Shown here in pieces: positions 7,032 through 55,818 of a stretch of 55,818 nucleotides of DNA. The stretch is from a bacterium (GTDB taxonomy: Bacteria; Patescibacteriota; Minisyncoccia; Phycocordibacterales; JAKAEA01), in contig JAJYGQ010000001.1 in assembly GCA_021785065.1 (NCBI GenBank), positions 1-55,818 of the forward strand, read 5' to 3'. The translations under genes were made by a program, and so were the position numbers. Under the pieces are notes generated by a model. It had not been told where the DNA came from. It ran no database searches and saw only the letters and a program-made list of their open reading frames with translations. How positions within the stretch are numbered: position 1 is the stretch's first letter; each line of letters begins with the position of its first letter.

Positions 7032-7037
7032 TTGTCT

Positions 7038-9467: not shown

Positions 9468-9500
9468 GGAAGTAAAGTTTGCTATAATGCGAGTAACATT

Positions 9501-10987: not shown

Positions 10988-11001
10988 GGACGCATGTTAT
11001 T

Positions 11002-11637: not shown

Positions 11638-11642
11638 GTTCT

Positions 11643-13747: not shown

Positions 13748-13807
13748 TACTCTGAATATCTATATCTAGGCGATACCTGAGCGCGGGGTGGGGTAAAAAA
13801 TATTGTG

Positions 13808-13867
13808 TGTGGATAACTGCAGCGACCGCAGGCGTGCTAGCGGGGTACAATTGCAGTATTACTATAT
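13808..13867 (+). repeat. 60-nt promoter repeat copy 1 (DnaA box plus -10)
   Basis: 57/60 identical to 17336-17395; begins TGTGGATAA (reverse DnaA box); TACAAT at 13846-13851. Confidence 0.9.
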
Positions 13868-13879
13868 TTACCCATTACA

Positions 13880-16800: not shown

Positions 16801-17323
16801 TACGCCTAACACATACCAATATTCGGTAACCTGTTCGAATGCGTCTAGCGGTGCTTCCGCATCTGCTTCCGCATCCGCATCAAAGACATCGCCGCCGGTA
16901 ACGATCATTGTTACTCCATACCCGACACCTGTGCCGAATCCCAATCCTAACCCTAATCCTAACCCAAATCCAAATCCTAACCCGAACCCCACTCCCACCA
17001 AGCCAAGCTTAACATTCAGCAATAATAATTCCTGCACGCCAACACTGAGTTGGACAGCAGACATTGTGCCAGGGATAACTTGTACTATGAGCAATTCGCT
17101 GAACGACTCAGCGTGGAATGGCATTCTCCAAAATGGTAGCGGTTCAGATTATGTGATTGGCCAAGGATTCACTCCTCAGCAATTTGACGGTGCCACCTAC
17201 TCACTTTCGTGTAAAAATGGCAATGGCGACATGGCTTCGGCTCCCGCAGTGACGGTCAGTGTGCCAAGCTCATGCATCACTATCAGTGGCTCTGGCGGCG
17301 GTAACACCTTCACGCCGTTCTAA
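13880..17323 (+). CDS. Large secreted/surface protein with Ig-like modules, internal TM plus signal peptide, (NP)n linker
   Basis: N-terminal signal (SAYA), TM-RKKK-hydrophobic-AHA at aa 428-480, T/S/P/G-rich beta-sandwich repeats with paired Cys. Confidence 0.8.
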   Translation: MSFKKHLGLISLFSLFAILPISAYAQSNSTSTPSNTSSSSPTNTASCFDYYHFDSVQVNLTSTSTTVVPGSNITFTGHLINNNSYPIVDGSVYVKVFRLDQNMSVADPNGPQVVDQFMAADQLNLAAGSSTPFAFTWHVPQQTITGNYQIATFFQTADSFEVTGLTFTNDVIGNTVNFAVQSPLKKVVGFDKTSVKVDGSPYFFATPPPLVTNGVATVTATLVNPTANTVTVPVTWSVYSWDGLSSSRLISTSNTSVNIPAGKNAPVTLTISDTSHAVYYVVAEADYKDSKSFLDIRFVRPSVSETRMSFAGLASPFPLQAGATSTIFACVHGMTQDVPSGGKVVLSLADNQGNPITSYTYQGGITGNVMGVKDTFIPTKSYSNVTLTAALYQNGSLVSSHSLTYACKAIDPSACPQSSSSSLFGNPLFDTLIALILIIIIILVWLLRKKKPSIPITPITLFFIAAVGFTVFSVPHAAHADSVVWANNFPYQYNLDTYVDMNPTGVICWKWGASQNWKINLSDVMSNPGASITYNASVINAATGAVLPDNATVAAGTKLIFKFAPHQYNNVFWWGTGYYYGTPYGMWMPNAAMPSSSDLGTTPYYFDAAAYGGGECNSPAEYVYIGLSVAPPVQQVTFSGAGSNGLTCGAPGADGSVTCTVNSGGPIMARFNFSSTQGNFYGEIGNASNGNGTIYTAEVPLTNGQAISIPSQDIWIPLNVQPPPVSASMSLVTPEPIYTNQPFTLHWSSTNADTCTPSGTGFSTNYNGTTNAPNGFNSPQVSTAGTYNYFVTCTQQSTGITQKSNVISVNVTAPPAPISVTPTCSANNTAVTLSWPAVAGASHYIVQTASTSITLNETSPTISAGPISINPNISYNYNVAADNTSWEVMASKTGSFTCPSTVPPAPTPTASLSVSTGGTQPKTSITVATGTPVTFTWGSTNATSCTGQTPQTPAGAPIFSTGGKTSGSVPLTFNTPNTYQYSVTCSNASSGASASASASASKTSPPVTIIVTPYPTPVPNPNPNPNPNPNPNPNPNPTPTKPSLTFSNNNSCTPTLSWTADIVPGITCTMSNSLNDSAWNGILQNGSGSDYVIGQGFTPQQFDGATYSLSCKNGNGDMASAPAVTVSVPSSCITISGSGGGNTFTPF

Positions 17324-17335
17324 GGCCACATATTT

Positions 17336-17395
17336 TGTGGATAACTGCAGTGACCGCAGGCGTGTTAGCGGGGTACAATTACAGTATTACTATAT
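17336..17395 (+). repeat. 60-nt promoter repeat copy 2 (DnaA box plus -10)
   Basis: 57/60 identical to 13808-13867; TACAAT at 17374-17379. Confidence 0.9.
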
Positions 17396-17405
17396 CTTAC
17401 AAAAT

Positions 17406-20400: not shown

Positions 20401-20972
20401 CTGCCTCATCAGGTATCAGCGCTTTATGGAAAAATTCTAGTGGCGTATGGTCCTCGTGGTCAAGCGCTCCCAGTACCCAAAGTGTTTCAGTATCATATGA
20501 CGGAACAGGTGTTGGAAGTGGTGTGTGGCCGGTAAAATTGACAAATACAGGAACCAGTCCAGCTTCAGTGTCGTTTATGCTCCAAAATTGTGTTGATACA
20601 AACGGTAATACATTACCCACCCAACAGCCTACTGTCACTGTGAATCCACTTAATCCAGTCATTTCTAACTTCTCATTCAGCAATACCTGCTCAGATCCCA
20701 ATCTTACGCTTGATGTGTCTAGTCAAGGCTCGGTCTCGTGCACAGTTACTGGTCCATCATTTAGTCAAACATATACAGGCACTCCCTCGAGTACTTTTGG
20801 CTCGGCTATCAGTCAGACAATTCCGACGAGTGCGCAAAGTGGTGCTACTTATTCCGTTAGTTGTACGAATAGCGGTGGTAGTAGCGGGTCACAAACAGCA
20901 ACATTTAGTCCAACTTCTACCTGTACTCCCGCATCGTCTTCGGGTGGCAGTACCAATTTCCTTCAATTTTAA
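17406..20972 (+). CDS. Large secreted/surface protein, architectural paralog of 13880-17323
   Basis: ATG 17406 gives a signal peptide (VVFA/Q); TM-KKKR-hydrophobic-VHA at aa 403-454; Ig-like repeats (YTITC, YSMTC, YSVSC). Confidence 0.8.
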   Translation: MSLYKGCLLASFLAIIALVVPSVVFAQTSTSTTQARALDQVTQLYVQNLKLNATSYKAGDTVQGSFSLVDDNTIDASNVYYRVAYMGNYTGHNLPQYQYFTGNIVGPIFVPATGATHETFSFTLPNIQVGTSSVGIEVQALNQAGRLYSWDDAQFTLIKGGNVPTLNVSSVFLKVGTTTFSPTTGPTIFSDETGQLVAKLYNPGNASVTVTPQISIYNRVIGTSVLLATPSLPVTVTPQHTATVTYSLPTFHNTPGVYAGTLDFTDAQNVVRSAQYQFRYIVPGAIATIQSVLLNPMNQVRANQPVQVTIVYTGAPDNILTYQSANQGQGQISTTLYDRDGTKLSQATTTGSLNGTVKKNVTLTPEQAGQGLFVKVVISKNGKVLSTYTTVSPPALASHTSSLTGLWYLLASMTILGVLIGYLWWKKKRGSAIPLAILFVVIMFTFPSVTPVHAETLSTDACTQGMVGACFDGWTYTNIVNTYGDYYPGYYLLTPDDITLYGDPLGWPMGSAGDGIVVGEGETFDVPLFVNANTCLNSAEQITGSATFNGQTNSFQSSFTAQASSTDHSTYAQTDYLNAGTYVAPTTPGTYQVKFSITNTWLNGGPNGIPVYTTVYGYLNVYVIAPASGSSITAQGECNPYDNNYPAIQVGLPGSAYAGPTLVSAGWLNYNLDVSTDNFQSPNYWWEQINTAYAVSIYPLLIEAGGYNDPNFFMPNNNQGNLYLLPGTTYYLRMDDPGVSYGTSISTTIPGNCAVPPVPVVTLTASSSSITLGSSDLLTWTSINVQSCNSAFSSSSATNGSASVTPSQTGTSTYTITCVDSSGNDVSSSASIDVVSAPPPPPPSVTLTPTSQTIILGQSASISSTVTATSPATISSCTLSSGGTSQTVTPNTLISEAPTQLGDTSYSMTCTDSNGNSATAPSTITTVLPTFSFTAPTSPVPSNTSFNLQWNFTTPSGLTMRVPHPSLWQNMLATLGLEPAPAYAATSGDTFTCDLSWSTASSGISALWKNSSGVWSSWSSAPSTQSVSVSYDGTGVGSGVWPVKLTNTGTSPASVSFMLQNCVDTNGNTLPTQQPTVTVNPLNPVISNFSFSNTCSDPNLTLDVSSQGSVSCTVTGPSFSQTYTGTPSSTFGSAISQTIPTSAQSGATYSVSCTNSGGSSGSQTATFSPTSTCTPASSSGGSTNFLQF

Positions 20973-20995
20973 AATCCCAGCGCACACGTTCCTAG

Positions 20996-23071
<2,076 letters not shown>

Positions 23072-23118: not shown

Positions 23119-23649
23119 CTAGGAAAAAGCACTCCTTAAGGTATCGTCCTTAAGCAGTGCTTTTTTATATGCAAGTTTTTCTTTGAGGCGATCAATATAT
23201 TGTATTTTATCTTGAGCAGATTGCTTTAATAATATAGAACAATGTTCTTTATCGGCACTTATTAATTTTTCCAATTTACCTTGCTCGTAAAGATGGCGAA
23301 CAAGAGAATAAAAATCTCCATCACTAGAGACAATAATTGCTCCATGAAATTGATGCCAATTAATAAGGACTTGAAAAACTAAGTCAGCATCGACATTACC
23401 TTTTATAAAGCCATTAGTATCTGGAATAGTTGGTTTGAATTTTAAGATAAAATTTATTTCTTCTAAAAAAGTGTATAGTTTTTGATTGGTCGGCAAAAAT
23501 CCAATAAACAGATACGCTTTCTGAACGTGATATTTTTCTTGCAAATAAATTCTGAATCGTCGATAATCCAGTTTCCATCCCAGTTTCTTAATACCTAAAT
23601 TAAGATTTTGTCCATCTATGAAAGCATAATTATGTATTGTTTTCTTCAT
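23119..23649 (-). CDS. NYN domain protein (LabA/DUF88, PIN-like fold)
   Basis: AFIDGQNL, KGNVDADL, IVSSDGDFYSLV; AT-rich. Confidence 0.9.
   Translation of the reverse strand: MKKTIHNYAFIDGQNLNLGIKKLGWKLDYRRFRIYLQEKYHVQKAYLFIGFLPTNQKLYTFLEEINFILKFKPTIPDTNGFIKGNVDADLVFQVLINWHQFHGAIIVSSDGDFYSLVRHLYEQGKLEKLISADKEHCSILLKQSAQDKIQYIDRLKEKLAYKKALLKDDTLRSAFS
23124..23166. terminator. Bidirectional terminator-like hairpin inside the NYN 3' end
   Basis: AAAAAGCACT-cc-TTAAGG-tatcgt-CCTTAA-gc-AGTGCTTTTT; U-tracts on both strands. Confidence 0.7.
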
Positions 23650-36326: not shown

Positions 36327-36400
36327 TGCGGGTTCGTCTAATGGTAGGACACATGCCTCTGGAGCATGGTATTGGGGTTCGAGTCCCTGACCCGCAGCCA
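36327..36400 (+). tRNA. tRNA-Gln(CTG); anchor of the cassette array
   Basis: TGCGGGT/ACCCGCA acceptor with U1-A72, CATGC-CTCTGGA-GCATG, G73 CCA. Confidence 0.95.
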
Positions 36401-36444
36401 CCACGAGCTAGCTCATTTGTCAAGAGGTGACTGAGCAGGTGCTC
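36376..36444 (+). repeat. Array repeat R0 (tRNA 3' end plus flank; L type)
   Basis: GG-TTCGAGT-CCCTG-ACCCGCA-GCCA then CCAC-GAGCTAGCTC-ATTTGTCAAGAGGTG...GAGCA-GG-TGCTC. Confidence 0.85.
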
Positions 36445-36460
36445 TTGTTCCTCGCGGTAT

Positions 36461-36505
36461 TTGAGCAGCGCTCGAGACGCGTTCGAGTCCCCGAGAGGGC
36501 AGTCC
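36461..36505 (+). repeat. Array repeat R1 (S type)
   Basis: First 36 nt identical to R5 (TTGAGCAGCGCTCGAGACGCGTTCGAGTCCCCGAGA), then GGGCAGTCC. Confidence 0.9.
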
Positions 36506-36513
36506 GTAGAAAC

Positions 36514-37167
36514 ATGAATAAAAAAATATTGAAAAAATTGGAATTAGTCGCGAGAGAACGGCAAACAAAAGATGACCCGTCTCATGATTTTGAGCATATC
36601 AGACGTGTCTTGAATGTCGCCATTAAAATCAGTAAAAGCGTCGGAGCAGATCTGGATGTGGTAATCCCAGCGGCACTTTTTCATGACACAGTGGTATATC
36701 GTAAGAATTCTCCACAAAGCAAAAACGAATCAAATGAAAGCGCGGAAGTTGCCGCATCTATTCTTAAAAAAACCAATGGATATCCTGAACACAAGATTAA
36801 AGATGTTGAAACATGCATTCGGCAATGCTCTTTCACAAAAGGAATAGTTCCTGAGCTTTTAGAACCAAAGGTTCTTCAAGACGCAGATTTGCTTGAGTCA
36901 ATGGGGGCGCTATCAATTATGCGAACGTTTTCTTCCGGCGGGCAGATGAACAGGTCATTTTACAATCATAAAAACCCTTTCTATGAAAAAAACGAAAAAG
37001 ATTTTCCTTCCGGAATCGGCTTATTTTACCGGCGTTTATTGATCGCTGATACAAGGCTTCACACCGCTTTTGCCAAGAGAATAGCAAAACGACGCACATC
37101 GTTTCTAAAGAAATTCCTTGCTCAAGTAGAAGCTGAACTCAAAGAATCAGGCGTATTGAAGGTTTAA
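36514..37167 (+). CDS. HD-domain metal-dependent phosphohydrolase
   Basis: SHDFEHIRRV, AALFHD, VLQDADLLESMGALSIMRTF; ATG 36514 (the track start lies within the repeats). Confidence 0.88.
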   Translation: MNKKILKKLELVARERQTKDDPSHDFEHIRRVLNVAIKISKSVGADLDVVIPAALFHDTVVYRKNSPQSKNESNESAEVAASILKKTNGYPEHKIKDVETCIRQCSFTKGIVPELLEPKVLQDADLLESMGALSIMRTFSSGGQMNRSFYNHKNPFYEKNEKDFPSGIGLFYRRLLIADTRLHTAFAKRIAKRRTSFLKKFLAQVEAELKESGVLKV

Positions 37168-37170
37168 TGG

Positions 37171-37208
37171 CTTAAAATAGTTCAGATACCCGCCCAGACG
37201 ATCAACCA
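37171..37208 (+). repeat. Array repeat R2 (M type)
   Basis: TAAAATAG-TTCAGAT-ACCCG-CCCAG-ACGATCA-ACCA; closely matches R7. Confidence 0.75.
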
Positions 37209-37673
37209 ATGAATCCCAGGAAAAATAAAAACAATAAAGATGAGTTCGAAAAAATTCGAAAGCAAATTTCTATTTTATTTCCACAAAAAATCAAATTAGG
37301 ATTCTACATTCAAAATTATAAAGATTCCAGAGGTGTCAAAAATCAAAAATTAAAAAATGTGTTAGCCAGCGGTGTAGCTTTTATTGAAGGTGATCAAGTT
37401 GATTTTAGACAATATCGTCATGCGGATAAAGGAACTCACCAGTTCGATGTTGACGAGATTGAAGGAATAAACAAGGATTACGTTATGGTAAAGTCAAAAA
37501 ATGATATTCAAGATCACCATCTCGACAAATCTATTCCGGATGATCTCATGTCTAAGAGAAATTTGGTTTTAGAGGTTATTGAAGATAAAGATGGGACTTT
37601 CAGATTGAATTCTGACGGAAATGGAATGGTAAGGGCCTATATTAGTTTTCCAGATCCTTTTAATAAAAAATAG
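37209..37673 (+). CDS. Hypothetical protein (cassette gene)
   Basis: 154 aa, charged, AT-rich, exactly bounded by R2 and R3. Confidence 0.65.
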   Translation: MNPRKNKNNKDEFEKIRKQISILFPQKIKLGFYIQNYKDSRGVKNQKLKNVLASGVAFIEGDQVDFRQYRHADKGTHQFDVDEIEGINKDYVMVKSKNDIQDHHLDKSIPDDLMSKRNLVLEVIEDKDGTFRLNSDGNGMVRAYISFPDPFNKK

Positions 37674-37674
37674 A

Positions 37675-37701
37675 TTCCAGTCCTGTAACACACGGCAGTC
37701 A
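37675..37701 (+). repeat. Array repeat R3 (highly degenerate)
   Basis: TTCCAGT-CCTGTAACA-CACGGCA-GTCA, starting 1 nt after the stop codon. Confidence 0.45.
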
Positions 37702-37748
37702 CCGTTCAATGTACACATAATCTTATCTCTAAATGATAAAATATGTGT

Positions 37749-39020
37749 ATGAATATCTTGGTTGTTGGAAGCGGTGGACGAGAACACGCTCTTGTTTGGA
37801 AACTACAGCAGTCTCCCAGAGTTACAAAAATTTTTGTCGCGCCCGGGAATGCTGGTACTTCTGCTCTGGCGACAAATATACCGATTTCTGAAACTCGCGA
37901 AATAATTGATTGGCTAAAAAGCAATCCAATAGATTTAGTAGTCATCGGGCCTGATGCATATCTCGCGGAAGGCATCGTTGATAAAATCCAAAAAATCGGA
38001 ATCACTGTTTTTGGCCCGACCAAGGCAGCTGCAGAGATTGAATGGTCAAAATCATTTGCGAAAAATTTAATGCAAGAAGAGGGTATACCGACTGCCTCTT
38101 TCAAGATTTTTAATAATTTTGTTGAAGCCGATTCCTATATCAAACATCGACAATTCCCGTTAGTTATAAAAGCCAATGGTCTGGCTTTGGGTAAGGGAGT
38201 CATAATTGCGGAAGATGTAATTCAAGCAAAAAAAGCACTTAAGGAAATAATGGAAGATAAAGTATTTGGTAAGGCGGGGAGCGAAGTAATCATCGAAGAG
38301 TGCCTTAAAGGACAGGAAATTTCCGTACACGCTTTTTGCGATGGAACCAATGCGGTACTTTTTCCTTCTTCTCAAGACCATAAAAGAATATTTGACGGCG
38401 ACAGCGGTCCAAACACCGGCGGTATGGGAACAATTGCGCCCGTCCCTTGGGTTACCAAAGATCAGATGAAAGAAATAGAAGAGAAGATAGTTCTACCGAC
38501 GCTGCAGGCTCTTAAAAAGAGAGGTAGAACTTTCAGGGGTATTTTGTATCCAGGAATAATGATAACGAAAACGGGTCCGAAAGTTATCGAATTCAACGCT
38601 CGTTTCGGCGATCCAGAAACCCAATCGTATATGCGCATTCTTGACGCAGACTTACTCGACATTCTCATCGCTTGTTCAGAGGGGAATATCGCATCGAAAC
38701 AGATTCAATGGTCAAAAAAATATTCGTGTTGCGTTGTTTGCACGTCAGGCGGATACCCGGCAGCCTATGAAAAAGATAAAGTGATAAAAGGATTAGACAT
38801 TCCCGGAAATAATGACATCGTTATTTTCCATGCTGGCACAAAAACACGCGGAGATAAAATAGTAACAAATGGCGGGCGAGTTTTGGGTATTACGGCAATC
38901 GGGAATAATTTATCAGAAGCGCTTTCGAGTGCGTACGCAAGTCTTCAGTCGCTGTCTTTCTCTGGTATGCAATATAGAAAAGATATTGGTGCTAAATCTA
39001 TGGGTCGGAATCAGGTATAA
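37749..39020 (+). CDS. purD: Phosphoribosylamine-glycine ligase
   Basis: VVGSGGREHAL, APGNAG, KANGLALGKGV, QDHKR, PNTGGMG, EFNARFGDPETQ, TNGGRVL. Confidence 0.96.
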   Translation: MNILVVGSGGREHALVWKLQQSPRVTKIFVAPGNAGTSALATNIPISETREIIDWLKSNPIDLVVIGPDAYLAEGIVDKIQKIGITVFGPTKAAAEIEWSKSFAKNLMQEEGIPTASFKIFNNFVEADSYIKHRQFPLVIKANGLALGKGVIIAEDVIQAKKALKEIMEDKVFGKAGSEVIIEECLKGQEISVHAFCDGTNAVLFPSSQDHKRIFDGDSGPNTGGMGTIAPVPWVTKDQMKEIEEKIVLPTLQALKKRGRTFRGILYPGIMITKTGPKVIEFNARFGDPETQSYMRILDADLLDILIACSEGNIASKQIQWSKKYSCCVVCTSGGYPAAYEKDKVIKGLDIPGNNDIVIFHAGTKTRGDKIVTNGGRVLGITAIGNNLSEALSSAYASLQSLSFSGMQYRKDIGAKSMGRNQV

Positions 39021-39026
39021 TAATTT

Positions 39027-39103
39027 GGTTCGAATACCCGTCCCAGACGGCCAGCCACCACGAGCTAGCTATTTTACCAAGAGGTGCTTGAACAGGTGTT
39101 CAA
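39027..39103 (+). repeat. Array repeat R4 (L type)
   Basis: GG-TTCGAAT-ACCCGT-CCCAG-ACGGCCA-GCCA then CCACGAGCTAGCT-ATTTTACCAAGAGGTG...TTGAACA-GG-TGTTCAA. Confidence 0.88.
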
Positions 39104-39162
39104 ATTCCATAGAAAAGTACTACGTGTGTAATCATGGGAGAAAATTCGATACTATTCTTATA

Positions 39163-39840
39163 ATGAAAGTTTCTTTTGTAAATCGGACAAGATTAATTTT
39201 GACTATTCTTGTTGCGTTACTAGTTGTAATTGTTGCTACTTATATATATTTCTCATTTAATACAAACAGTATTGTCAATCAGGTTACAATTACTCTGGTT
39301 CCTACTAATGTCTCTCTTCCCTCGGTCACTTCAATAAATTCTAAAAATGAATTACCTCCACTCATTCCTTATGAATCTTTTCCAAATAAAACAGCGTTTA
39401 TTCGTGGGAATCCCACAAGCTATATAAATGGCCTAAACTCAAACGACGCCTATTTGTATAAGATTGGTTCAACTACCTATATCACAACCACCGTTAACCC
39501 AAGTGGTTGCTCGTTTACCACTTGCGATATCTCAACCCTATACTATCTCCATGGTAACAATGCTATAAAAATAATTGGCGACCTCAGTGAAAGTATCGAG
39601 AATTACGATTATTTGGGAGAAGAAGGAAATGCTATGTATGCAGATAGAAGGGGGAATGTTTTTACTGTAAGTAATAACGGCACAACAATGTATTTAATCA
39701 AGAATGCTAAAGTGGTGGGGGAGGTTAACGGTGTAGCGACTTTACCATTCGAATTAAAGATGTTTAGTGATAATAAACACACCTACCTCATTATAAATGG
39801 GGCGTATGGCGTTACTAAAAAGTATGAGATTGTTTTTTAG
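39163..39840 (+). CDS. Membrane-anchored extracellular hypothetical protein (cassette gene)
   Basis: ATG 39163 gives an N-terminal TM (LILTILVALLVVIVATYIYF); the track start overlaps purD and R4. Confidence 0.65.
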   Translation: MKVSFVNRTRLILTILVALLVVIVATYIYFSFNTNSIVNQVTITLVPTNVSLPSVTSINSKNELPPLIPYESFPNKTAFIRGNPTSYINGLNSNDAYLYKIGSTTYITTTVNPSGCSFTTCDISTLYYLHGNNAIKIIGDLSESIENYDYLGEEGNAMYADRRGNVFTVSNNGTTMYLIKNAKVVGEVNGVATLPFELKMFSDNKHTYLIINGAYGVTKKYEIVF

Positions 39841-39870
39841 GATGGATGACATATTTTACATAGTATAATC

Positions 39871-39914
39871 TTGAGCAGCGCTCGAGACGCGTTCGAGTCC
39901 CCGAGATGGCAGCC
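39871..39914 (+). repeat. Array repeat R5 (S type)
   Basis: First 36 nt identical to R1, then TGGCAGCC. Confidence 0.9.
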
Positions 39915-39936
39915 TGTAAAATGATATGATTACTCT

Positions 39937-40488
39937 ATGAAGACAGAAATAGAAACAAGATTTTTAGAGATAAATAAAAATCACCTGATCGTTACATTAC
40001 AGGCGTTGGGCGCGGCAGATAAAGGAGAAGTTAAATTGGATGAAATAATATTCTACGATAAATATTTAACCTGGATGAAAGATGGTAAACTCGTAAAAAT
40101 AAGGAGAAAGGGAGACGATATAAAATTGATATTTAAAAACAATAAAGAGAAAACCATTGAAGGTGTTCAAGAAATCGAATTCAAGATTCCAAACATTGCA
40201 GAGGTAAAATCTTTTTTAGAAGCGATAGGGTTGATTGCCTACAGAACGATTGAAAAATATCGGCATTCATTTGAGCTAGATGGGGCGGTGATCGATATCG
40301 ATACTTGGCCGAAAATTCCCGTGTATGTTGAAATAGAAGGGGACTCGGCTGAAAACGTAAAAGGTATTGCCGAGAAATTGGGATTTAATTGGGAAGACCG
40401 ATTTGATGGGGATCCGAGGGTTGTTTTCAAGAAATATGGTTTCGATTTGGACAAAATCAGAACGGTAACATTTGATACTTTTGAATAA
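39937..40488 (+). CDS. CYTH domain protein (class IV adenylate cyclase/triphosphatase-like)
   Basis: N-terminal ExExR (EIETRF), KIRRKG, EKYRHSF, IDIDTWP, VEIEG. Confidence 0.85.
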   Translation: MKTEIETRFLEINKNHLIVTLQALGAADKGEVKLDEIIFYDKYLTWMKDGKLVKIRRKGDDIKLIFKNNKEKTIEGVQEIEFKIPNIAEVKSFLEAIGLIAYRTIEKYRHSFELDGAVIDIDTWPKIPVYVEIEGDSAENVKGIAEKLGFNWEDRFDGDPRVVFKKYGFDLDKIRTVTFDTFE

Positions 40489-40491
40489 ATC

Positions 40492-41010
40492 ATGGAAAAA
40501 CTGAACGCAAATCAAGAAAACGGCAGTGAATCGGAGAATTTCATAGAGGCGTCGGATGTTGTGGTTAGTCCGGAAACTGGTTTGGCCATGGTGGTGATAA
40601 AACCTGACGCTTTTAAAAAAGAAGGTGAGATTATAAAGAGACTTGAAGGGTCTGGCTTGTATGTCGTCAAAAAAGTAGCAAAAAGATTGCCGGACAAATT
40701 TGTGATCGGTACGATGTATAAAGAGTTACCCAAGACCATTGAAAAAGAAACCCTACGTCATTTTAATGCCGGTCCATCGGAAATCGTGCTTGTCAGAGGC
40801 GGTGACGATGTTCTAAAAAAGGTTATTACAGTAACGGGCGAAAATACTAATCCGGCCCAATGTGATGAACAAAGTATCAGATATGTTTTTGGTGAGCACG
40901 TTGGTCGAAAAACTTCAGATGGTAGGAAATACTTTCGCAACGCGGTTCACCGGTCAAAAGACGAAAAAGAGCAAAGCGAAGATCTAGAAAAATTTAAGGA
41001 TTTGTTATAG
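40492..41010 (+). CDS. Nucleoside diphosphate kinase-like protein
   Basis: MVVIKPDA, TGENTNP...SIRYVFG, NAVHRS with catalytic His. Confidence 0.8.
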   Translation: MEKLNANQENGSESENFIEASDVVVSPETGLAMVVIKPDAFKKEGEIIKRLEGSGLYVVKKVAKRLPDKFVIGTMYKELPKTIEKETLRHFNAGPSEIVLVRGGDDVLKKVITVTGENTNPAQCDEQSIRYVFGEHVGRKTSDGRKYFRNAVHRSKDEKEQSEDLEKFKDLL

Positions 41011-41016
41011 ATTTCC

Positions 41017-41045
41017 GTTCGAATACCCTCCCACGCGGCCAGCCA
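41017..41045 (+). repeat. Array repeat R6 (M type)
   Basis: G-TTCGAAT-ACCCT-CCCAC-GCGGCCA-GCCA. Confidence 0.85.
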
Positions 41046-41080
41046 ATTTACATAACGTATATAATAAGATAGAAAATAGT

Positions 41081-41758
41081 ATGGAATCCGTAAAACAAAA
41101 TCTGCCGAACGAAGAAGAGGTTCGTCTGGAGGCGATGAAAATCTACAACGAGCTTCTTAAAGAGCCGGAGATTTCCGAAGCTCTGAATTTACTCGATTCA
41201 CTCCCGAAAAATCTGAAATACCACAATAAAGATCACACGCTTGATGTTTTAAGAGAAACTATTTTGTTTGCTGTGGCAGACGGATTGGATGAGGAAGCAA
41301 TCAAACTTCAGGCCATAGCAGCGGCGTGGCATGATGTCGGCTATGTGCAAAGGTACGAAAACAATGAACCTGTGGCGGTAGAGTTGTTTAAGGGTAGTCA
41401 GGCATTTAAAACCCTATCAGAAGAGCAGAGAGATGAGGTCGTTGCCATAATTTTAGATACGCAAATGGTCATGAAAGACGGTAGACCATTTCTTCTCCAA
41501 CAAAGAAGTCACTCCGGATATGTTTTGGATGGTGATGTCAGCAACTTTGGTAGGCAAGATTATTTGGAGAAAAGAATGGACGTTGCTCAAGAATTGAACT
41601 TGGATCTGTCAAATTCAGAGGTAAAGAAAAAATTTTTCGCTTTTGCTCTAGAGTTGTTAAAAAATCACCAGTGGAAAACAAAATCAGCCCAAGTATTTCG
41701 GAAAAAGCAAAAAGACAATAATCTGGCGTTACTTGAAGAAGAGTACGCTAAGCTGTAG
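41081..41758 (+). CDS. HD-domain phosphohydrolase (PDEase-like YHN motif)
   Basis: YHNKDHTLDV, AAAWHDVG, DGDVSNFG. Confidence 0.82.
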   Translation: MESVKQNLPNEEEVRLEAMKIYNELLKEPEISEALNLLDSLPKNLKYHNKDHTLDVLRETILFAVADGLDEEAIKLQAIAAAWHDVGYVQRYENNEPVAVELFKGSQAFKTLSEEQRDEVVAIILDTQMVMKDGRPFLLQQRSHSGYVLDGDVSNFGRQDYLEKRMDVAQELNLDLSNSEVKKKFFAFALELLKNHQWKTKSAQVFRKKQKDNNLALLEEEYAKL

Positions 41759-41773
41759 AATCGACGTTAGCAG

Positions 41774-41810
41774 CTAAAATAGTTCGAATACCCTCCCAGA
41801 CGGTCAGTCC
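41774..41810 (+). repeat. Array repeat R7 (M type)
   Basis: CTAAAATAG-TTCGAAT-ACCCT-CCCAG-ACGGTCA-GTCC. Confidence 0.85.
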
Positions 41811-41828
41811 GATAAATTTACTCATTAT

Positions 41829-42263
41829 ATGAAATCAAAAACTACAGATTGTCCTTTCTGTGCGATCATAAATCAGCGTACGGAACGAATCGTTAGAGAA
41901 ACGAAAAATACTTTTTCGGTTCTAAGTAATCCATGTTTGATGCCAGGTCATCTATTAGTAATTCCAAAGCGTCATATTGAAAAAATAAGTGAGCTCACAA
42001 AAACTGAAAGAAATGAACTTTTTGATGAAGTTGCTGCGCTGCAAGAATTTGTTGTTAAAAAAATATCGCCAGGTTGTGATATTTCAGAACATTATCGGCC
42101 ATTCATTCCTAATGGTCGCTTAAAGGTCGGTCATTTACATGTTCACATTTGGCCGCGCTACCCTAATGATGAACTTTATGAAAAAGTTCAAGTATTTGAG
42201 AAAAATATCTTTAAAGATTTGTCTCAAGAGAAATTCGAAAAGTACAAAAAACTATACGAGTAA
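41829..42263 (+). CDS. HIT family hydrolase
   Basis: CPFC, GHLLVIPKRH, HLHVHIWPR histidine triad. Confidence 0.92.
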   Translation: MKSKTTDCPFCAIINQRTERIVRETKNTFSVLSNPCLMPGHLLVIPKRHIEKISELTKTERNELFDEVAALQEFVVKKISPGCDISEHYRPFIPNGRLKVGHLHVHIWPRYPNDELYEKVQVFEKNIFKDLSQEKFEKYKKLYE

Positions 42264-42283
42264 TGATATTATTGGTCTAAAGC

Positions 42284-42340
42284 GGTTCGAGTACCCTCCC
42301 TGACCCGCAGTCGCCACGAGCTAGCTCTTTTGTCAAGGGG
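42284..42340 (+). repeat. Array repeat R8 (L type; closest to the resident tRNA end)
   Basis: GG-TTCGAGT-ACCCT-CCCTG-ACCCGCA-G then CCAC-GAGCTAGCTC-TTTTGTCAAGGGG. Confidence 0.9.
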
Positions 42341-42410
42341 CGCTAACAATGTTTCTGAAAGAGTTTTTTGTATACTGAATCTCGCCCAATATTCATGCTA
42401 CTATAGAGCT

Positions 42411-42863
42411 ATGGACGAATGTATTTTTTGCAAAATTGTGCGGGGCGAAGCGCCGTGTCATAAAATAGGGGAGGATGAGCGCCACCTGGCTTTTCTTTCT
42501 ATTTTTCCTAACACCGAAGGTTTTTCAGTGGTGGTGACGAAGCAACACTACCCAAGCTATATTTTTGATTTACCTGAAGATGTACAAGCTGGTCTCGTAA
42601 TTGCGGCGGGTAAGGTAGGAAAACTGCTCGATCAAAAATTAGATGATGTCGGCAGAACGGGCCTGATGCTTGAAGGATTTGGCGTCAACCACGCGCACGC
42701 AAAACTTTTTCCGATGCATGGCACTAAAGACGCGACGTGGCACCCCAAAAAGTCTTCTCTCGACACATTTTTCAAGAAATATGAAGGTTACATTTCTTCG
42801 CACGATAGTAAAAGAGCCGACGATACCGAGCTCGAAAAGTTAGCAAAAAAAATACGCGGTTAG
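42411..42863 (+). CDS. HIT family protein (HxHxK variant)
   Basis: CIFCKIV, HAHAKLFP; ATG 42411. Confidence 0.85.
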   Translation: MDECIFCKIVRGEAPCHKIGEDERHLAFLSIFPNTEGFSVVVTKQHYPSYIFDLPEDVQAGLVIAAGKVGKLLDQKLDDVGRTGLMLEGFGVNHAHAKLFPMHGTKDATWHPKKSSLDTFFKKYEGYISSHDSKRADDTELEKLAKKIRG

Positions 42864-42917: not shown

Positions 42918-43499
42918 ATGAACCCAAAAGTTTCGGGGGCCTTTATTTTCATTATCATGCTGGCCACCTTTGTGACGGGTGTCATCGCATATCCGCATGT
43001 AGGTAAGCGGATGGCTTTCGGGATACCGATTGTCTTACTCATTCTCTGGGGTCTTTGGGCACTTTTGCCTAACATTGATCCAATCGCTAAAGGTTTCCCC
43101 GGCTTTCGCTACGTCTATGATTTCTTTTGGATTTTACTTTCAGCAGTGCTTGCATATTGCTACGCACTCGTGCTGGGGCGGGCGCTCGGTTGGCAGATTA
43201 GTCTACTACATTCGATAGTACCAGCGGTTGCGGTCCTCATTTTTATTGTCGGTGCTTTATTGCCAAAGATTCGCCGTAACTGGTTTTTTGGTGTTCGAAC
43301 TCCCTGGACACTTTCTTCAGATGAAGATTGGGCAAAGACACACCGCTTCGCTCGTCCTGTGTTTATGATTGCCGGTGTCATTATCTACATCGGCACGTTC
43401 ATGCCGCGTACCTGGAGTATTGGACTTCTTGTCGCGGTCATTCTGCTTTCCGCTCTCACCAGTGTTATTTATTCTTACTTCGCGTTTCATCATAAATAG
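42918..43499 (+). CDS. SdpI/YfhL family membrane (immunity-like) protein
   Basis: NWFFGVRTPWTLSSDEDWAKTHRFA motif; multiple TMs. Confidence 0.85.
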   Translation: MNPKVSGAFIFIIMLATFVTGVIAYPHVGKRMAFGIPIVLLILWGLWALLPNIDPIAKGFPGFRYVYDFFWILLSAVLAYCYALVLGRALGWQISLLHSIVPAVAVLIFIVGALLPKIRRNWFFGVRTPWTLSSDEDWAKTHRFARPVFMIAGVIIYIGTFMPRTWSIGLLVAVILLSALTSVIYSYFAFHHK

Positions 43500-43647: not shown

Positions 43648-44100
43648 ATGACTAGAAAAGCTATATTTGTAGCGGTTATAACAATCCTGGCAACAGGTGT
43701 TTTAATCGCGCCAACCCAATACGCATTAGCGTGGGGTGGTAATTATGGTGGTTACGGTAATTATGGTGGTGGTAGCTACAATAATTACGGCGGTAATAAC
43801 TATGGTAATTATGGTGGTGGTAGCTACAATAATTACGGCGGTGGTGATTACGGTAATTATAATTGTGGTTGTGATAACCCCGTGCCACCGCCAGTAGTAT
43901 ATGCTCCACCGCCTATCTACGTTCCGCCCCCAACATTTACCTATTCACCGTGCCCGCCTTGGTATTCACCGTCCCCGCTTCGGGAAGATTACTCATACCA
44001 AAATTATAACTATGGCGGTAGCTACAATAATTACGGCGGTAATAACTATGGTACTTATGGTGGTAACAACTACAATAATTACGGTAGTGGCTGGTATTAA
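43648..44100 (+). CDS. Secreted Gly/Asn/Tyr-rich low-complexity protein
   Basis: Signal peptide (QYALA/W), tandem GGxYNNYGG repeats flanking a Pro-rich core. Confidence 0.7.
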   Translation: MTRKAIFVAVITILATGVLIAPTQYALAWGGNYGGYGNYGGGSYNNYGGNNYGNYGGGSYNNYGGGDYGNYNCGCDNPVPPPVVYAPPPIYVPPPTFTYSPCPPWYSPSPLREDYSYQNYNYGGSYNNYGGNNYGTYGGNNYNNYGSGWY

Positions 44101-50957: not shown

Positions 50958-53900
50958 ATGAAGTCACCTAGACAAAAATATACACAAAGTATGGCCCGAG
51001 TGGTGATCATTGTCGTGCTCATCGCTTTTTTCATATCCGGAAACGTCTACGCAGCTGAAAAAACCCCCTCGAGCGCGGCCATTCCAACACCAACTTCTAG
51101 TCCTATAGAGAGTTCTGCCCCAAGCGCACTGTCATCAGTGTCATCTTCATTCGTTGCTGCCGTGGGGGATACCGTTAACGGGGTGACGAACACGCTTTCG
51201 TCATTCTGGAATTCAGTTGTCGGATTTTTCTGGCACAGTACACCGCCGTCAACAGCCCCAACACTCACCACTTCATCAACGCCCCACGCATCGTTTCCTA
51301 TTGCTCCGAAAAATCAAGTAACTGCTACTGACACCATCCACACGTCTACGTCGCAGCCGCTGCTCTATCCGCAAACACAAGTCGATTCGCAGCAAGACAT
51401 AAATCAATCTGTTTCTCTTGCGCCCACTACACCTTTCGCTCCCGACACGGTCACGCGTGCCGAACTCGGTGCTAGTTTACAATTACTCTCGCAGCAACTC
51501 ACCGCGCAAATCGCCGCGATACCGCGGATTACTGGCATTATAATTCCGCCTGCCCCGTCGGGAGGAGCAGGCGTTACTACCGTGGGGGCGTTGAGCTCCG
51601 GTTCAATCGCGTCTGGTTTCGGTCCGATAGATATTGGCAGCAATGATCTCACCGCTGGTCTCGGTACTCTTTCCGATCTCTCCGTCTCAGCCACTACTAC
51701 CACGGGAACACTCGATGTCACCAACTCCACCGGCCCCAGCGCCACCTTTGCCGGCGATGTTGGCATTGGCACCACCAATCCAAAATATCTCTTAGACGTT
51801 GCTGGCGCCGCCCACTTCGACACCTTAGTCACCAACGGTCAAACCATTGGTGGCAATTTCGGCGTCACTGGTACCGCTTCGTTTGCCACCACCACCATCA
51901 CTGGCCCACTCACCCTCGGTAGTCTCAACGGCCTCATCTACGGCACCAACGGATCACTAAGCGCTATCGCCACTTCATCGCTTGGCATTCCGCTCGCCGC
52001 TTCCACCACCGCCTGGAACGATTTCTACAACACACCTTCCACCCGCATCACTGCCGGCACCGGCCTCGCCTGGTCGGGCAACACCCTCAATGCCGCTGCC
52101 ACCGCTCCCGGCGGCGCATCATCTACTATTCAGTACAACGCCAATGGTTCACTTGGTGGTAATAATAATTTTGTTTTTAATGGAACCGATGTTGGTATTG
52201 GCACAACGTCGCCGACAACAGCTCTTTCTATCACCGGTGACACTACTATCACTTCCAATGATCAAAACGCTCTGCAAATAAATAATGCCGCAGGTTCTCC
52301 GATGATAAATATGGGTGAGTGGCAAAACAATTCCAATTACAGTGGTATTTGGTTGAAACAATCAAGTCCTTCCGCTGGCAACTATGCACTTCTGGGAACT
52401 AATGATGGCCTATTTCTCAATGGTCCAACAACAAATGGATTTATTCAATTTAATATCAACAACACTATCGGGGCGATGAGAATTATTTCAAACGGCTTTG
52501 TCGGTATCGGCACAAGTCACCCCGTAAACAAACTCGACATCGCTGGCGCCGAAGCGATCGGCTCCTACGCAGGCGTGAATACTGCACCAAGCAATGGTTT
52601 AATTGTGAGTGGTAATGTGGGGATAGGTTCTTCAACGCCGTCGTACCCTCTCACCGTTGGTACTTCACTATTCAACGTAGACTCGAATGGATATATTGGT
52701 TCAGGGATGGGTGGTTTCAACCCTATTATTGAACCAGATTTGTATTATGATTCTTATGATTTTTCGTTACGAGGATTTGCAAACCAAAAATTTGTTACTG
52801 TGGGATATGAGGCTGTTTCGGGTGGCAATCCTGGTGTGGGTATTTCTCAACAGGGTGGTATTGCGTGGACAGAAAGTACTTCAAACTCAACGCGAGCAGG
52901 TGTGGATTCACTTACTCTCACACAACCATCAAATGGTTCTCTCGAAATAAAATCTCCAACAACAAATACTTTAACTGGTATTGGGGTTGCGCCAGTAAAC
53001 ACACTCGACGTCTCAGGTGCCGAAGCTATCGGCTTATACGCAGGCATAAATACCGCTCCGAGCGACGGTTTGATTGTGAGTGGTCAAACAGCACTTGGAA
53101 CAAATAGTGTAGTAAGCGGCGCTACTCTTACTGTAAATAACAATATTGCTTTTTCTGGTACAGGTACGGGTAATGCGGGAAATATATCGTGGGGTACAGG
53201 ATTCGGTTCACCCGCTCTTACGCTTTATAATGGTGGTGCTACAGGAAGTTATGGGTGGGGATTGATACCAAATACAACCGAGTTCTTTATGCCTTCTAAT
53301 TCTTCATCTAATATCTATGAATGGACAGGCGGTGGTACATTTTCAACTACGGCGGGAACTAATGCTGCTATGGTATTGAATACCTATTATGACCGACTCG
53401 GCATCGGCACCAGTTCGCCCTATGCTACTCTCTCTGTCGTGGGTAATCTCGCGCTCACTGGCGCGCTCTATGACAGTGCCGCGAGCCCGGGCGCTAATGG
53501 CGATATTTTGCAATCGACGGGATCGGGCACGCAGTGGATTGCGACAAGTTCGCTTGGCATCGCGTCGGGAAAAATTAACGCAACCTATCCGCTCGAAGAT
53601 ACGGCTGGCGCGCTTTCACTTGCTTTCGGCACCACCACAGCTAACACCTGGTCGGGCGCACAAACATTTGCCAGTCCCATCACCGTGACAGGCACCGGCA
53701 CCTCGACGTTCGACAGTAATATTGCCATCGCCGGCAACATTGTGCCTACGGCCAACAACACCTATAGTCTCGGCACGGCAAGTTCCACCTGGAAGAGTGT
53801 CTACATCGGTCCCGGCTCGCTCTATGTAAACGGTCAAGAAGTTATTCATACTGATCCCAGTAAAAACGTCAATATCAACGCTGACACTAACCAAAGCCTT

Positions 53901-55818
53901 GTGCTAGGAACCTTTGGCACTGGCAACATCGATCTAAATCCCTCTGGTTCGGGAGTGATTGAGCTCCAAGGTAATGTGCTTGTACCCGGTGGCAATACCA
54001 TTTCGACAACCAACAATAGTCCGCTTGATTTTCTCAGTGGTATTAATGCTGGCAATGTTGCGCTGAATGGTAACACGCTTGAAGCGAGTAATCTCAATGG
54101 CGGTCTCGCCATTGCTGCTACAGGCACGGGTGCTGTCTACGTTACTCACGGCAATTTCGGCATCGGCACGACAAGTCCCAGCGTTGCCGCGCTCGACGTC
54201 GCTGGCGGTGGTTATTTCTCTGGTAATCTTAAACTTGGCGGTGCACTCACGGTGAGCGGTAGTGGCACCTCCACTTTTGCCAACGGTATCAATCTCACTG
54301 GCGGCTGTCTTGAACTGGGTGGTTCTTGTTTTACAGGCGGCGGCACACCAGGCGGCGCATCATCTACAATTCAGTACAACAAAAACGGCTCGTTTGGCGG
54401 TTCAAATAATTTCGTCTTTAATGGTACGGATGTCGGCATCGGCAGTACAACTCCCACGTATAGTTTAAGTGTTGGTAATAATGCATATGTAGTTGGTAGT
54501 ACGGGTGAATTTGTTTCGCAAGACGCATTTGATTTCGGTCCTAGCAATAATAGTAATGGTCTTTACACAGCGCGTGGTGATTTTACCTATTGGGGGAAAC
54601 CAAGTTCAAAAATTGTCTTCAGTACAGGTACTTATGAGGATTTAGCTTTTCCTAATACGGGTGAAATTATTTTTAGCTCTGCTGCTAACAGTGCAACAGC
54701 TCAAAATATTCGTTCAGGAGGTGATACTTTTCTTACACGTTATAGTGCAAACAATTTGCTACTTTCTTCAAATGGAAGTACGGGGTTAGCTAATCTTTTA
54801 GTTACAGGCAAAATTGGCATCGATACCACTAACCCTCAAAACAAACTTGACGTCTCTGGCGGTGCAGCTATCGGCTCATACGCAGGCGTCAACACCGCAC
54901 CGAGTAATGGCTTGATTGTGAGTGGAAATGTGGGGATTGGTACGAATAATCCACTATCGCAAGTCTCTATTTCAGGTACTGCACCAACTTTAAACTTATA
55001 CACCACTAATGACAATACAGGCACAAGTTCGATTCTTTTTAGTTCAGGTATTAATCATCCAGCCCAAGCTGGTATTTTTGCTAAGAGCCAAGGTGCTTAT
55101 GACCAAACTAACTTATATATATCCTCAAACTTCGCTAATAATGGCGCACCAGCTCAAATTTCTAATGCTCAAATTGCAATAACTCCAGATGGTACTCAAA
55201 TAAATGGTCCATTTGGATTAAATGCGACTCCTGTAGCTAATCGGCTTACACTCGCACCCTCGACGGGTAATGAATTTAATCTTAATGTCGCTTCGGGATT
55301 TAATAATGGAACAGCGCTTATAAATTTTGCTAATGCGGTTGGAACAATTAAAACTGCTATTTATTCTGCAGCCAATGGTGCTTATGGAGTAGGAGATGGA
55401 ATCAATTTTGCGATTAACCCGTACACAAATGGTTCCACTATTAGCACTACGACGAACAACTATACACGTTTATTTATTTCTCCCAATGGACAAGTAGCTA
55501 CTGGATATAATGCCGCTGGTATTACGAGTTCGTCAGCATCTTTCACCGTAGAAGGTACATCAACACTTCCCACAGTACCTCTGGTGAATATCGCGTCATC
55601 AACAGGTTCAACCCTCTTTACAATAACCAATTCTGGCAACGTGGGTATTAATACAACCAGTCCCGTAAACAAACTCGATGTAAACGGCGCCGAAGCTATC
55701 GGTTCCTACGCCGGTGTGAACACCGCACCAAGTAATGGCTTGATTGTTAGTGGCAATGTGGGGATTGGTACGAATAATCCAAGTGCGCCTCTAGATATAT
55801 CTTATTCCGACAATAATT
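50958..55818 (+). CDS. Giant surface protein with GNVGIGT repeats, partial (more than 1620 aa, runs off the window)
   Basis: ATG 50958 (or 50991), signal peptide ending NVYA; same frame confirmed at 52560, 53031, 54831 and 55740; missing from the ORF track, consistent with no stop before the edge. Confidence 0.85.
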   Translation, partial: MKSPRQKYTQSMARVVIIVVLIAFFISGNVYAAEKTPSSAAIPTPTSSPIESSAPSALSSVSSSFVAAVGDTVNGVTNTLSSFWNSVVGFFWHSTPPSTAPTLTTSSTPHASFPIAPKNQVTATDTIHTSTSQPLLYPQTQVDSQQDINQSVSLAPTTPFAPDTVTRAELGASLQLLSQQLTAQIAAIPRITGIIIPPAPSGGAGVTTVGALSSGSIASGFGPIDIGSNDLTAGLGTLSDLSVSATTTTGTLDVTNSTGPSATFAGDVGIGTTNPKYLLDVAGAAHFDTLVTNGQTIGGNFGVTGTASFATTTITGPLTLGSLNGLIYGTNGSLSAIATSSLGIPLAASTTAWNDFYNTPSTRITAGTGLAWSGNTLNAAATAPGGASSTIQYNANGSLGGNNNFVFNGTDVGIGTTSPTTALSITGDTTITSNDQNALQINNAAGSPMINMGEWQNNSNYSGIWLKQSSPSAGNYALLGTNDGLFLNGPTTNGFIQFNINNTIGAMRIISNGFVGIGTSHPVNKLDIAGAEAIGSYAGVNTAPSNGLIVSGNVGIGSSTPSYPLTVGTSLFNVDSNGYIGSGMGGFNPIIEPDLYYDSYDFSLRGFANQKFVTVGYEAVSGGNPGVGISQQGGIAWTESTSNSTRAGVDSLTLTQPSNGSLEIKSPTTNTLTGIGVAPVNTLDVSGAEAIGLYAGINTAPSDGLIVSGQTALGTNSVVSGATLTVNNNIAFSGTGTGNAGNISWGTGFGSPALTLYNGGATGSYGWGLIPNTTEFFMPSNSSSNIYEWTGGGTFSTTAGTNAAMVLNTYYDRLGIGTSSPYATLSVVGNLALTGALYDSAASPGANGDILQSTGSGTQWIATSSLGIASGKINATYPLEDTAGALSLAFGTTTANTWSGAQTFASPITVTGTGTSTFDSNIAIAGNIVPTANNTYSLGTASSTWKSVYIGPGSLYVNGQEVIHTDPSKNVNINADTNQSLVLGTFGTGNIDLNPSGSGVIELQGNVLVPGGNTISTTNNSPLDFLSGINAGNVALNGNTLEASNLNGGLAIAATGTGAVYVTHGNFGIGTTSPSVAALDVAGGGYFSGNLKLGGALTVSGSGTSTFANGINLTGGCLELGGSCFTGGGTPGGASSTIQYNKNGSFGGSNNFVFNGTDVGIGSTTPTYSLSVGNNAYVVGSTGEFVSQDAFDFGPSNNSNGLYTARGDFTYWGKPSSKIVFSTGTYEDLAFPNTGEIIFSSAANSATAQNIRSGGDTFLTRYSANNLLLSSNGSTGLANLLVTGKIGIDTTNPQNKLDVSGGAAIGSYAGVNTAPSNGLIVSGNVGIGTNNPLSQVSISGTAPTLNLYTTNDNTGTSSILFSSGINHPAQAGIFAKSQGAYDQTNLYISSNFANNGAPAQISNAQIAITPDGTQINGPFGLNATPVANRLTLAPSTGNEFNLNVASGFNNGTALINFANAVGTIKTAIYSAANGAYGVGDGINFAINPYTNGSTISTTTNNYTRLFISPNGQVATGYNAAGITSSSASFTVEGTSTLPTVPLVNIASSTGSTLFTITNSGNVGINTTSPVNKLDVNGAEAIGSYAGVNTAPSNGLIVSGNVGIGTNNPSAPLDISYSDNN

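Follow-up and report, generated by a model that had tools for sequence, protein, structure and literature searches.

Accessory genes stacked beside a fixed recombination target are known from several bacterial systems. Integrons couple the tyrosine recombinase IntI with a docking site, attI, and with attC sites, imperfect palindromes that fold as single strands (R''-L''/L'-R'), have a GTTRRRY core, vary in sequence and are conserved as hairpins. Cis-mobilizable elements (CIMEs) and their ICESt1-related kin are multi-kb segments decayed from integrative and conjugative elements (ICEs) or integrative and mobilizable elements (IMEs) (PMC5704250). In Dehalococcoides, islands accumulate at ssrA; about half of them lack an integration module, and the integrase is a large serine recombinase encoded on the reverse strand near attL (PMC3146451). 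The tycheposons and tRNA islands of Prochlorococcus have as their hallmark a recombinase together with a replication or packaging module (10.1101/2020.12.28.424599). Little is understood of the ways in which members of the candidate phyla radiation (CPR) acquire and swap accessory genes, and the literature that we searched holds no description of cassette arrays in Patescibacteria, which is not proof that none exists. Here we describe an array of small genes and tRNA-derived direct repeats behind the tRNA-Gln(CUG) gene on a 55.8-kb contig (the whole stretch of 55,818 nucleotides, called the window below) from a Patescibacteria genome (CPR, Paceibacteria-like), a group with tiny genomes; the best named relatives of the PyrG encoded on it all fall within this group. 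The array is nearest to the integrase-less tandem islands found at tRNA and transfer-messenger RNA (tmRNA) genes; it is integron-like in its working and is not an integron. We put at about 50% the probability that its cassettes are exchanged by a recombinase acting in trans at tRNA-derived, double-stranded sites, in a strain-variable array of at least eight cassettes.

The intact tRNA-Gln(CUG) gene directly follows pyrG, and behind it stand nine genes (C1–C9) that point in the same direction as the tRNA in the window. One direct repeat occupies every intergenic spacer from pyrG to the HIT gene at 42411, the 3-nt gap between C5 and C6 being the exception; the spacer between the tRNA and C1 contains two copies, R0 (the tail of the tRNA itself) and R1. 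The repeat cores begin 2–52 nt past the preceding stop codon, the array spacers measure 41–147 nt, and each unit consists of one or two intact genes. The array has a GC content of 39.1%, as against 46.5% in the remaining window; individual cassettes range from 31.6% to 42.1%, pyrG stands at 51.7% and gatA at 53.6%. The original prediction, made from the sequence of the window, had described eight tRNA-derived repeats whose cores, counted from the tRNA onward, lie 104–1354 nt apart in DNA richer in A and T than pyrG and gatA, and our analysis confirmed this description with the reservation that the third copy, R3, is weak. The array sequence is the same, at 100% identity, in three assemblies (ENA, the NCBI metagenome-assembled genome GCA_027328845.1 and Logan), so the array is not an assembly artefact. 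Since the cassette proteins are mutually unrelated in a comparison of all C proteins, the repeats are not by-products of gene duplication, and a segmental duplication as their origin is ruled out.

The sites are direct repeats of 30–50 bp, and two types can be distinguished. The B-type sites (R2, R4, R6, R7 and R8) follow the consensus (c)TTAAAAtaG-TTCGrAy-ACCCT-CCCAsrCGGyCAG-CCA, that is, a T-loop, a 5-nt ACCCT insert and a tail that has A72, G73 and CCA, identity features of tRNA-Gln, but a different acceptor sequence (ACGGCCA); the ACCCT insert and CCCAsrCGGyCAG are derived characters common to these sites. The A-type sites (R1 and R5) have GTTCGAGTCCC in common with the tRNA and a GAGC/GCTC hairpin on their left. 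A further repeat of about 45 nt, flank(i), runs from CCACGAGCTAGCT to CAAGAGGTG with a small hairpin and follows R0, R4 and R8, as well as one site in another strain (L016_b, below). Copies of the sites are 75–93% alike, as against 46–62% identity to the tRNA, except for R8 and for the T-loop/CCC part of R1 and R5. R8, the most distal copy, does keep the resident tail as predicted: TTCGAGT and the 13-nt tail CCCTGACCCGCAG are both exact and are split by the 5-nt insert. R8 links the B family to the tRNA, and the ancestor of the sites is the tail of tRNA-Gln from T-loop to CCA. A donor-genome origin of the acceptor variants, as 3' ends of foreign tRNA-Gln genes, found no support, the tRNA-Gln(CUG) genes of six relatives all reading CCCGCA-G; the ACGGCCA-G variant is common to copies in three strains together with the 5-nt insert, and it appears to be a single, separate lineage of sites.

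Statistical support is firm for seven of the eight copies, all of which lie within 6 kb. A hidden Markov model (HMM) of the B site built from three copies in other strains alone (on contigs L011 and L016) recovers R7, R6, R4 and R2 (E = 2.5e-7 to 1.7e-4) and R8 (E = 0.035), and nothing else in the 55.8 kb; R3 is missed by this model and by the A-site model, and is found only by a model trained on R3 itself. None of the window's other ~45 intergenic regions has a site, and dispersal of the kind seen with repetitive extragenic palindromes or miniature inverted-repeat transposable elements finds no support there, with no copy outside 36.3–42.4 kb and no palindromic structure. Over the 307 kb that make up all DNA compared, a combined model returned the array members and the loci chosen for their pattern match and nothing more; no member of the site family lies in ~250 kb of relatives' loci or downstream of tRNA-Gln in five relatives. 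Exact-pattern scans with a 25-mer of the A site and a degenerate 26-mer of the B site gave no match in 185,579 GTDB representative genomes. In JGI metagenome contigs the B-site pattern had a single match (L006), inside a coding region of an unrelated high-GC contig, which we judged to be due to chance. Of the patterns for the tRNA-Gln tail, B variants and an insert-less 'ancestral' tail, three were without a match among IMG/VR viral contigs; the loosest pattern gave four low-specificity matches (L007–L010), none in a CPR-like array, and ARAGORN found no tRNA in L007 or L010. The site system may be narrow, perhaps limited to one species-level clade, or too variable for exact-pattern searches.

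The gene content of the array differs among close relatives. Closer strains were found through members of the PyrG protein cluster, and the comparison rests on short metagenome contigs, of which L016, L017 and L018 are 1.7–2.3 kb long. L011 shares 98.5% identity with the window at its pyrG end and 90% where C9 and the SdpI gene lie, and between these two parts it has the tRNA, an opposite-strand gene with an NYN domain and a B-type site (GGTTCGGACACCCTCCCACACGGCCAGCG), the backbone returning 20 nt before C9. Homology between the window and L011 ends at 36399 and resumes, with both L011 and L017, at 42389–42391; L017, which comes from another sample than L011, confirms the backbone sequence after the L011 site. 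L016 carries C5'-C6 and the orthologue of R6, then an opposite-strand AAA_33 gene, a further B site (L016_b) with flank(i), and a new gene, and its homology with the window stops at the end of the R6 orthologue (...CGGCCAGC). L018 belongs to the sample that yielded L016, and there flank(i) comes after the tRNA, as it does in the window. Cassette content thus varies in L011 and L016 with breaks at site ends, and all homology breaks fall at the 3' edge of a site (...CAGC|). L016_b and the L011 site are 86% identical over 51 nt though they flank unrelated genes. The co-orientation of genes and tRNA that had been predicted holds in the window and fails in the other strains: the NYN cassette of L011 and the AAA_33 cassette of L016 are inverted, although their sites keep the orientation of the array, which fits a site that acts at the level of DNA rather than a terminator or an RNA signal. 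Set against what the original prediction had named as refuting it, gene content differs among close relatives with breaks at the repeats, the repeats are confined to this locus, and they are significant.

Two observations on these contigs stand beside the comparison. Nucleotides 1–160 of L011 are an inverted copy, 97.5% identical, of its nucleotides 1263–1422, where the NYN gene begins, and are joined to mid-pyrG, a probable assembly chimera. The tRNA-Gln has an encoded CCA (36398–36400) only where flank(i) follows, in the window and in L018; elsewhere the gene ends in GCAGCA (L005, L014, L023 and L024, relatives described below) or in GCAGCC followed by C, not A (L002, likewise described below, and L011), and the encoded CCA seems to come from inserted DNA.

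The sites are better conserved than the genes that they accompany. Between the window and L016, the R6 orthologues have 3 differences in 33 positions, as against a proportion of synonymous differences (pS) of 0.58–0.67 in C5 and C6 (P <= 6e-9), for which the synonymous divergence dS is 1.1–1.7 and dN/dS, the ratio of nonsynonymous to synonymous divergence, is 0.04–0.05. Contigs of one sample compared with the window give a dS of 0.14–0.17 for pyrG and C9 and above 1 for C5 and C6, a contrast that depends on contigs whose origin from one genome is not provable. The dS of C5-C6, far above that of pyrG and C9, and the GC content of the cassettes, which ranges from 0.32 to 0.42, both fit independent acquisition, with separate histories for cassettes and backbone. 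Independent decay of att scars predicts neither the conservation of the sites nor their shared derived characters nor the likeness of L016_b to the L011 site, whereas selection on a site, or concerted evolution by recombination at it, does. Conservation beyond synonymous divergence argues for a working site rather than for decaying relics. The backbone to the right of the array may have a mosaic history too: the SdpI gene (42918–43499) has a dS of 0.87 against positions 538–1119 of L017 (strain ERZ27237538), while the adjacent C9 has 0.14 and pyrG 0.17.

In several respects the locus works as integrons do, sedentary chromosomal integrons and CALINs included. Cassettes of one or two genes, largely promoterless, follow each other in one direction beside a fixed docking site, and each ends in a site; the cassette content varies between strains and includes ORFan genes. 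The spacers hold AT-rich –10-like boxes 3' of the sites. The differences concern the machinery. As the original prediction had stated, no integrase, transposase, IntI or attC is present: Pfam and open reading frame (ORF) scans found no recombinase or transposase domain, Phage_integrase included, and no intI tyrosine recombinase gene among the ORFs of the window, and the spacers fold no more stably than shuffled sequences (z = –1.15 to +1.35). The sites are conserved in sequence and unfolded, contrary to attC; their core, GTTCGAA or GTTCGGA, departs from GTTRRRY; the place of attI is taken by a tRNA gene's end; and inverted cassettes here keep the orientation of their sites. The proposal of an integron-like cassette array therefore stands as regards its cassette character and falls as regards an integron proper, and capture in trans would be its conjectural part. 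Folds and a terminator scan ruled out a hairpin, a terminator or an attC-like structure as the identity of the sites. A pseudo-tRNA or a known RNA family is likewise excluded, ARAGORN and Rfam finding only the true tRNA, even at E <= 10.

The likeness to integrase-less tandem islands is closer, and the array is set apart from them by its single-gene granularity, by the lack of decay debris and by conserved sites whose lineage is separate from the resident tRNA. As in CIMEs, the segments lie stacked 3' of an intact tRNA gene between direct repeats derived from the 3' end of this target, and att sites are kept while genes for integration and transfer are absent (PMC5704250). Units here are 0.5–1.4 kb long and hold one or two genes, in contrast to decayed multi-kb ICEs and IMEs, and the sites form their own conserved lineage with the 5-nt insert and another 'acceptor' sequence. 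The Dehalococcoides islands also lie in tandem after one small-RNA gene, with a 3'-end repeat that starts from the T-loop and a conserved motif just upstream of the repeat (PMC3146451); they differ in their target, ssrA rather than tRNA-Gln, in units that are far larger and in possessing integration modules, none of which is found in the array. With Prochlorococcus the locus shares a streamlined genome, a flexible island by a tRNA gene, partial tRNA copies between elements and dispersed over the island, and a cargo of adaptive metabolic genes (10.1101/2020.12.28.424599). The hallmark recombinase and the replication or packaging genes of tycheposons are absent from the array, its repeats are denser (one per gene or gene pair), and they belong to a diverged, conserved site family rather than being plain partial tRNAs.

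A mechanism consistent with these data would treat the sites as double-stranded att-type sites at which a recombinase encoded elsewhere inserts, deletes and exchanges cassettes, presumably through a circular intermediate. Candidates for this enzyme would be a tyrosine integrase or a large serine recombinase such as that of the sister species L014 (below). The 3' end of the tRNA may have been the primary docking site and R8 the hybrid joint left by the founding insertion, a B-type site then being carried along with each cassette. A crossover near the discriminator and CCA would fit the breaks at the 3' edge of the sites; a shared block of identity with a crossover further left would fit equally. 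The probable entry points for new cassettes are the B or A sites already present, or the outermost 3' end of the tRNA. If such capture is real, the conserved, unstructured tRNA-Gln tail site would play the part of attC and the tRNA gene's end that of attI, and the locus would be an integron analogue without IntI and attC, a second and apparently independent solution to the problem that integrons solve, by which single accessory genes are acquired, stacked and exchanged independently of both; we advance this stronger claim, true cassette capture in the CPR, tentatively and think that it may well be wrong. A cassette rack of this kind would offer the CPR a definite, testable path for gene flux on a fine scale, and its cargo hints at trading of flexible nucleotide salvage or signalling functions.

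Several points weigh against exchange in trans. The window encodes no recombinase, and none has been linked to the sites. A B site that recombined in the T-loop of the tRNA would destroy the acceptor stem, a difficulty for any recombination between tRNA and site. Excision and circles are without direct support: L013, a contig spanning R1 to R5 whose ends overlap by 30 nt, was considered as an excised circle and rejected, the overlap being the k–1 expected of k-mer branching at the 36-nt exact repeat. The left end of L011 is probably chimeric, and L016, L017 and L018 are not provable as one genome. Finally, no GTDB representative, and no JGI contig beyond the chance match, carried the site family in the exact-pattern scans.

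Among the other explanations, the one that survives best is that integrase-bearing islands inserted serially at tRNA-Gln by tandem accretion and then lost their integration genes, leaving cargo between att scars as in CIMEs; single cassettes would no longer be mobile at present. This is a documented route to integrase-less tandem segments at tRNA and tmRNA repeats (PMC5704250; PMC3146451; 10.1101/2020.12.28.424599), and R8 both keeps the resident tRNA tail and is the most distal copy, as would be the oldest attR. A recombinase-bearing island does occur at the same tRNA-Gln, directly behind it, in the sister species L014, whose PyrG belongs to the same 90% protein cluster: its 456-aa large serine recombinase (Resolvase and Recombinase domains; 13756–15126, minus strand; phrog_95 integrase, E = 5e-72) lies ~2 kb from the tRNA; the window has no CcrB/DsiB-like large serine recombinase. 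The L014 enzyme resembles the ssrA integrase, and any link to the sites described here would be conjectural; it has no relatives in the viral contigs, and no B site or tRNA repeat is present in the 10 kb of the L014 island that were examined. Against serial loss speak the intact one- or two-gene units and the short spacers, with no integrase fragments or non-coding debris among them (no relics of integrase or transfer genes are seen in the array, which leaves room for old decay), the derived characters that the tRNA lacks, a conservation far above that of synonymous sites, and the replacement of a single unit in L016. We consider decayed tandem islands unlikely; even so read, the array would be an unusually dense and well-preserved example.

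Recombination in trans at a working site also fits the wider behaviour of the locus, which is an insertion hotspot. In the more distant relatives L002/L003, L005 and L023 (PyrG identity 70–84%), the synteny of prfB, ftsE, ftsX and pyrG is kept with tRNA-Gln after pyrG, and in L024 the tRNA-Gln lies ~3 kb further downstream of pyrG; all of them have different genes after the tRNA and no array. The L014 island (11933–21761, its right end lying further on) also encodes an EcoRI-type methylase, a GmrSD/HNH protein, two DUF4238 proteins and a helix-turn-helix regulator.

Less probable again is another function for the repeats, as an operator, a promoter-proximal element or a transcript-processing signal, with the cassettes shuffled by homologous recombination for which the repeats serve as short arms after DNA uptake. 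The sites are under constraint and sit just after stop codons and ahead of the –10-like boxes; the array, which has no terminator-like site inside it, may be one transcript; and no recombinase has been found. Type IV pilus systems, one of which is encoded in the window, have been linked to DNA uptake in these bacteria. Against this reading, the orientation of the site in the inverted NYN and AAA_33 cassettes follows the array and not the gene; the sites show no significant fold and no RNA family match, they are missing from the window's other intergenic regions, and descent from the tail of a tRNA, with the hybrid R8, is the signature of an att site. Very improbable is the further reading that metagenome assembly created the strain variation by chimeric joining at short repeats and that the array is fixed in one genome: the inverted 160-nt duplicate fused to mid-pyrG at the left end of L011, the small size of L016, L017 and L018 and the tendency of assemblers to break at these repeats (L013, L018) speak for it, but three assemblies agree on the array of the window, the joins in L011 and L016 bring in genes that the window lacks and site copies that have diverged, and do not put pieces of the window together again, L017 confirms from another sample the backbone behind the L011 site, and an identity of 13 nt does not suffice to create a join where the tRNA ends.

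The cargo is mostly concerned with nucleotides: the window has two HD enzymes and HIT, CYTH, NDK-like and PurD proteins (Table 1), and other strains add a kinase-like AAA_33 protein and an NYN nuclease. The homologue search with C2 found no relatives, hence no genomic context to compare, and comparison of the cassettes with known defence systems gave no match except a weak one of C8 to HIT/ThsC. C9 was considered as a further cassette and rejected: its homologues number more than 5000, with ~70–76% identity among the best 120, it stands elsewhere in an aspS-HIT-gatCAB context as a core gene, and the homologue search yielded no further arrays. The succession of flank(i) and an A-type site occurs twice, at 36401–36511 (9 nt apart and empty) and at 39058–39921 (with C4 between them), and C4 looks nested inside a unit that ends in flank(i) and the A site.

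Table 1. Features of the tRNA-Gln array, in order of position in the window
Feature	Position	Strand	Evidence
tRNA-Gln(CUG), intact, CCA encoded; left boundary of the array (R0)	36327-36400	+	ARAGORN; Rfam RF00005, 55 bits
flank(i) copy 1, CCACGAGCTAGCT..CAAGAGGTG and small GAGC/GCTC hairpin	36401-36451	+	repeat family D1, alignment, blastn
R1, A-type, 51 nt	36461-36511	+	92% identical to R5, 36 nt exact
C1, YedJ-like HD phosphohydrolase	36514-37167	+	Pfam HD; PDB 3gw7, E = 4.5e-26
R2, B-type, most diverged B site	37171-37208	+	external-copy HMM, E = 1.7e-4; combined model, E = 1.5e-7
C2, ORFan, 154 aa, 31.6% GC	37209-37673	+	self-hit alone among 5.8 billion proteins
R3, doubtful, possibly degenerate	37675-37704	+	circular model alone, E = 0.0012
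C3, purD (phosphoribosylamine-glycine ligase)	37743-39020	+	Pfam GARS_N, GARS_A, GARS_C
R4, B-type, ends CAGCCA	39027-39057	+	external-copy HMM, E = 1.2e-6
flank(i) copy 2, with TTGAAC-AGGT-GTTCAA hairpin	39058-39108	+	repeat family, alignment, fold
C4, 225 aa, N-terminal hydrophobic segment, no family match	39163-39840	+	
R5, A-type	39871-39921	+	92% identical to R1
C5, CYTH, first gene of the two-gene cassette C5-C6 (39937-41010)	39937-40488	+	Pfam CYTH
C6, NDK-like, second gene of the two-gene cassette C5-C6	40492-41010	+	Pfam NDK
R6, B-type; L016 homology ends at 41043	41011-41045	+	external-copy HMM, strain alignment
C7, HD/phosphohydrolase-like, weak evidence	41081-41758	+	phrog_19425, E = 6e-4; no Pfam match above threshold
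R7, B-type	41773-41810	+	external-copy HMM, E = 2.5e-7
C8, HIT-family hydrolase	41829-42263	+	Pfam HIT
R8, hybrid: B-type left arm and ACCCT insert, then the resident tRNA's CCCTGACCCGCAG	42276-42313	+	external-copy HMM, E = 0.035; alignment
flank(i) copy 3 (diverged) and spacer; right end of the strain-variable segment	42314-42390	+	alignment
C9, core HIT gene, backbone, not a cassette	42411-42863	+	homologues and context; retained in L011 and L017

Elsewhere in the window, an NYN-domain gene (23119–23649, minus strand) sits in a 36%-GC patch between ligA (20999–23071) and gatC, which are adjacent in L014; it has 37% identity with the NYN cassette of L011, and no flanking repeats were seen around it. 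The type IV pilus cluster (953–13747) encodes PilM, PilO, PilB and PilT-like ATPases, PilC, a prepilin peptidase and several pilins, and is followed by two giant ORFs (13880–20972; 1147 and 1237 aa) without Pfam matches. Another ORF of more than 1600 aa, at about 51000–55818, runs off the end of the window. To the right of the array, a 150-aa ORF (43648–44100, plus strand) without a family match is made up, for nearly its whole length, of Gly/Asn/Tyr repeats (GGNNYGNYGGGSYNNY) on either side of a Pro-rich middle, and its DNA has internal repeats.

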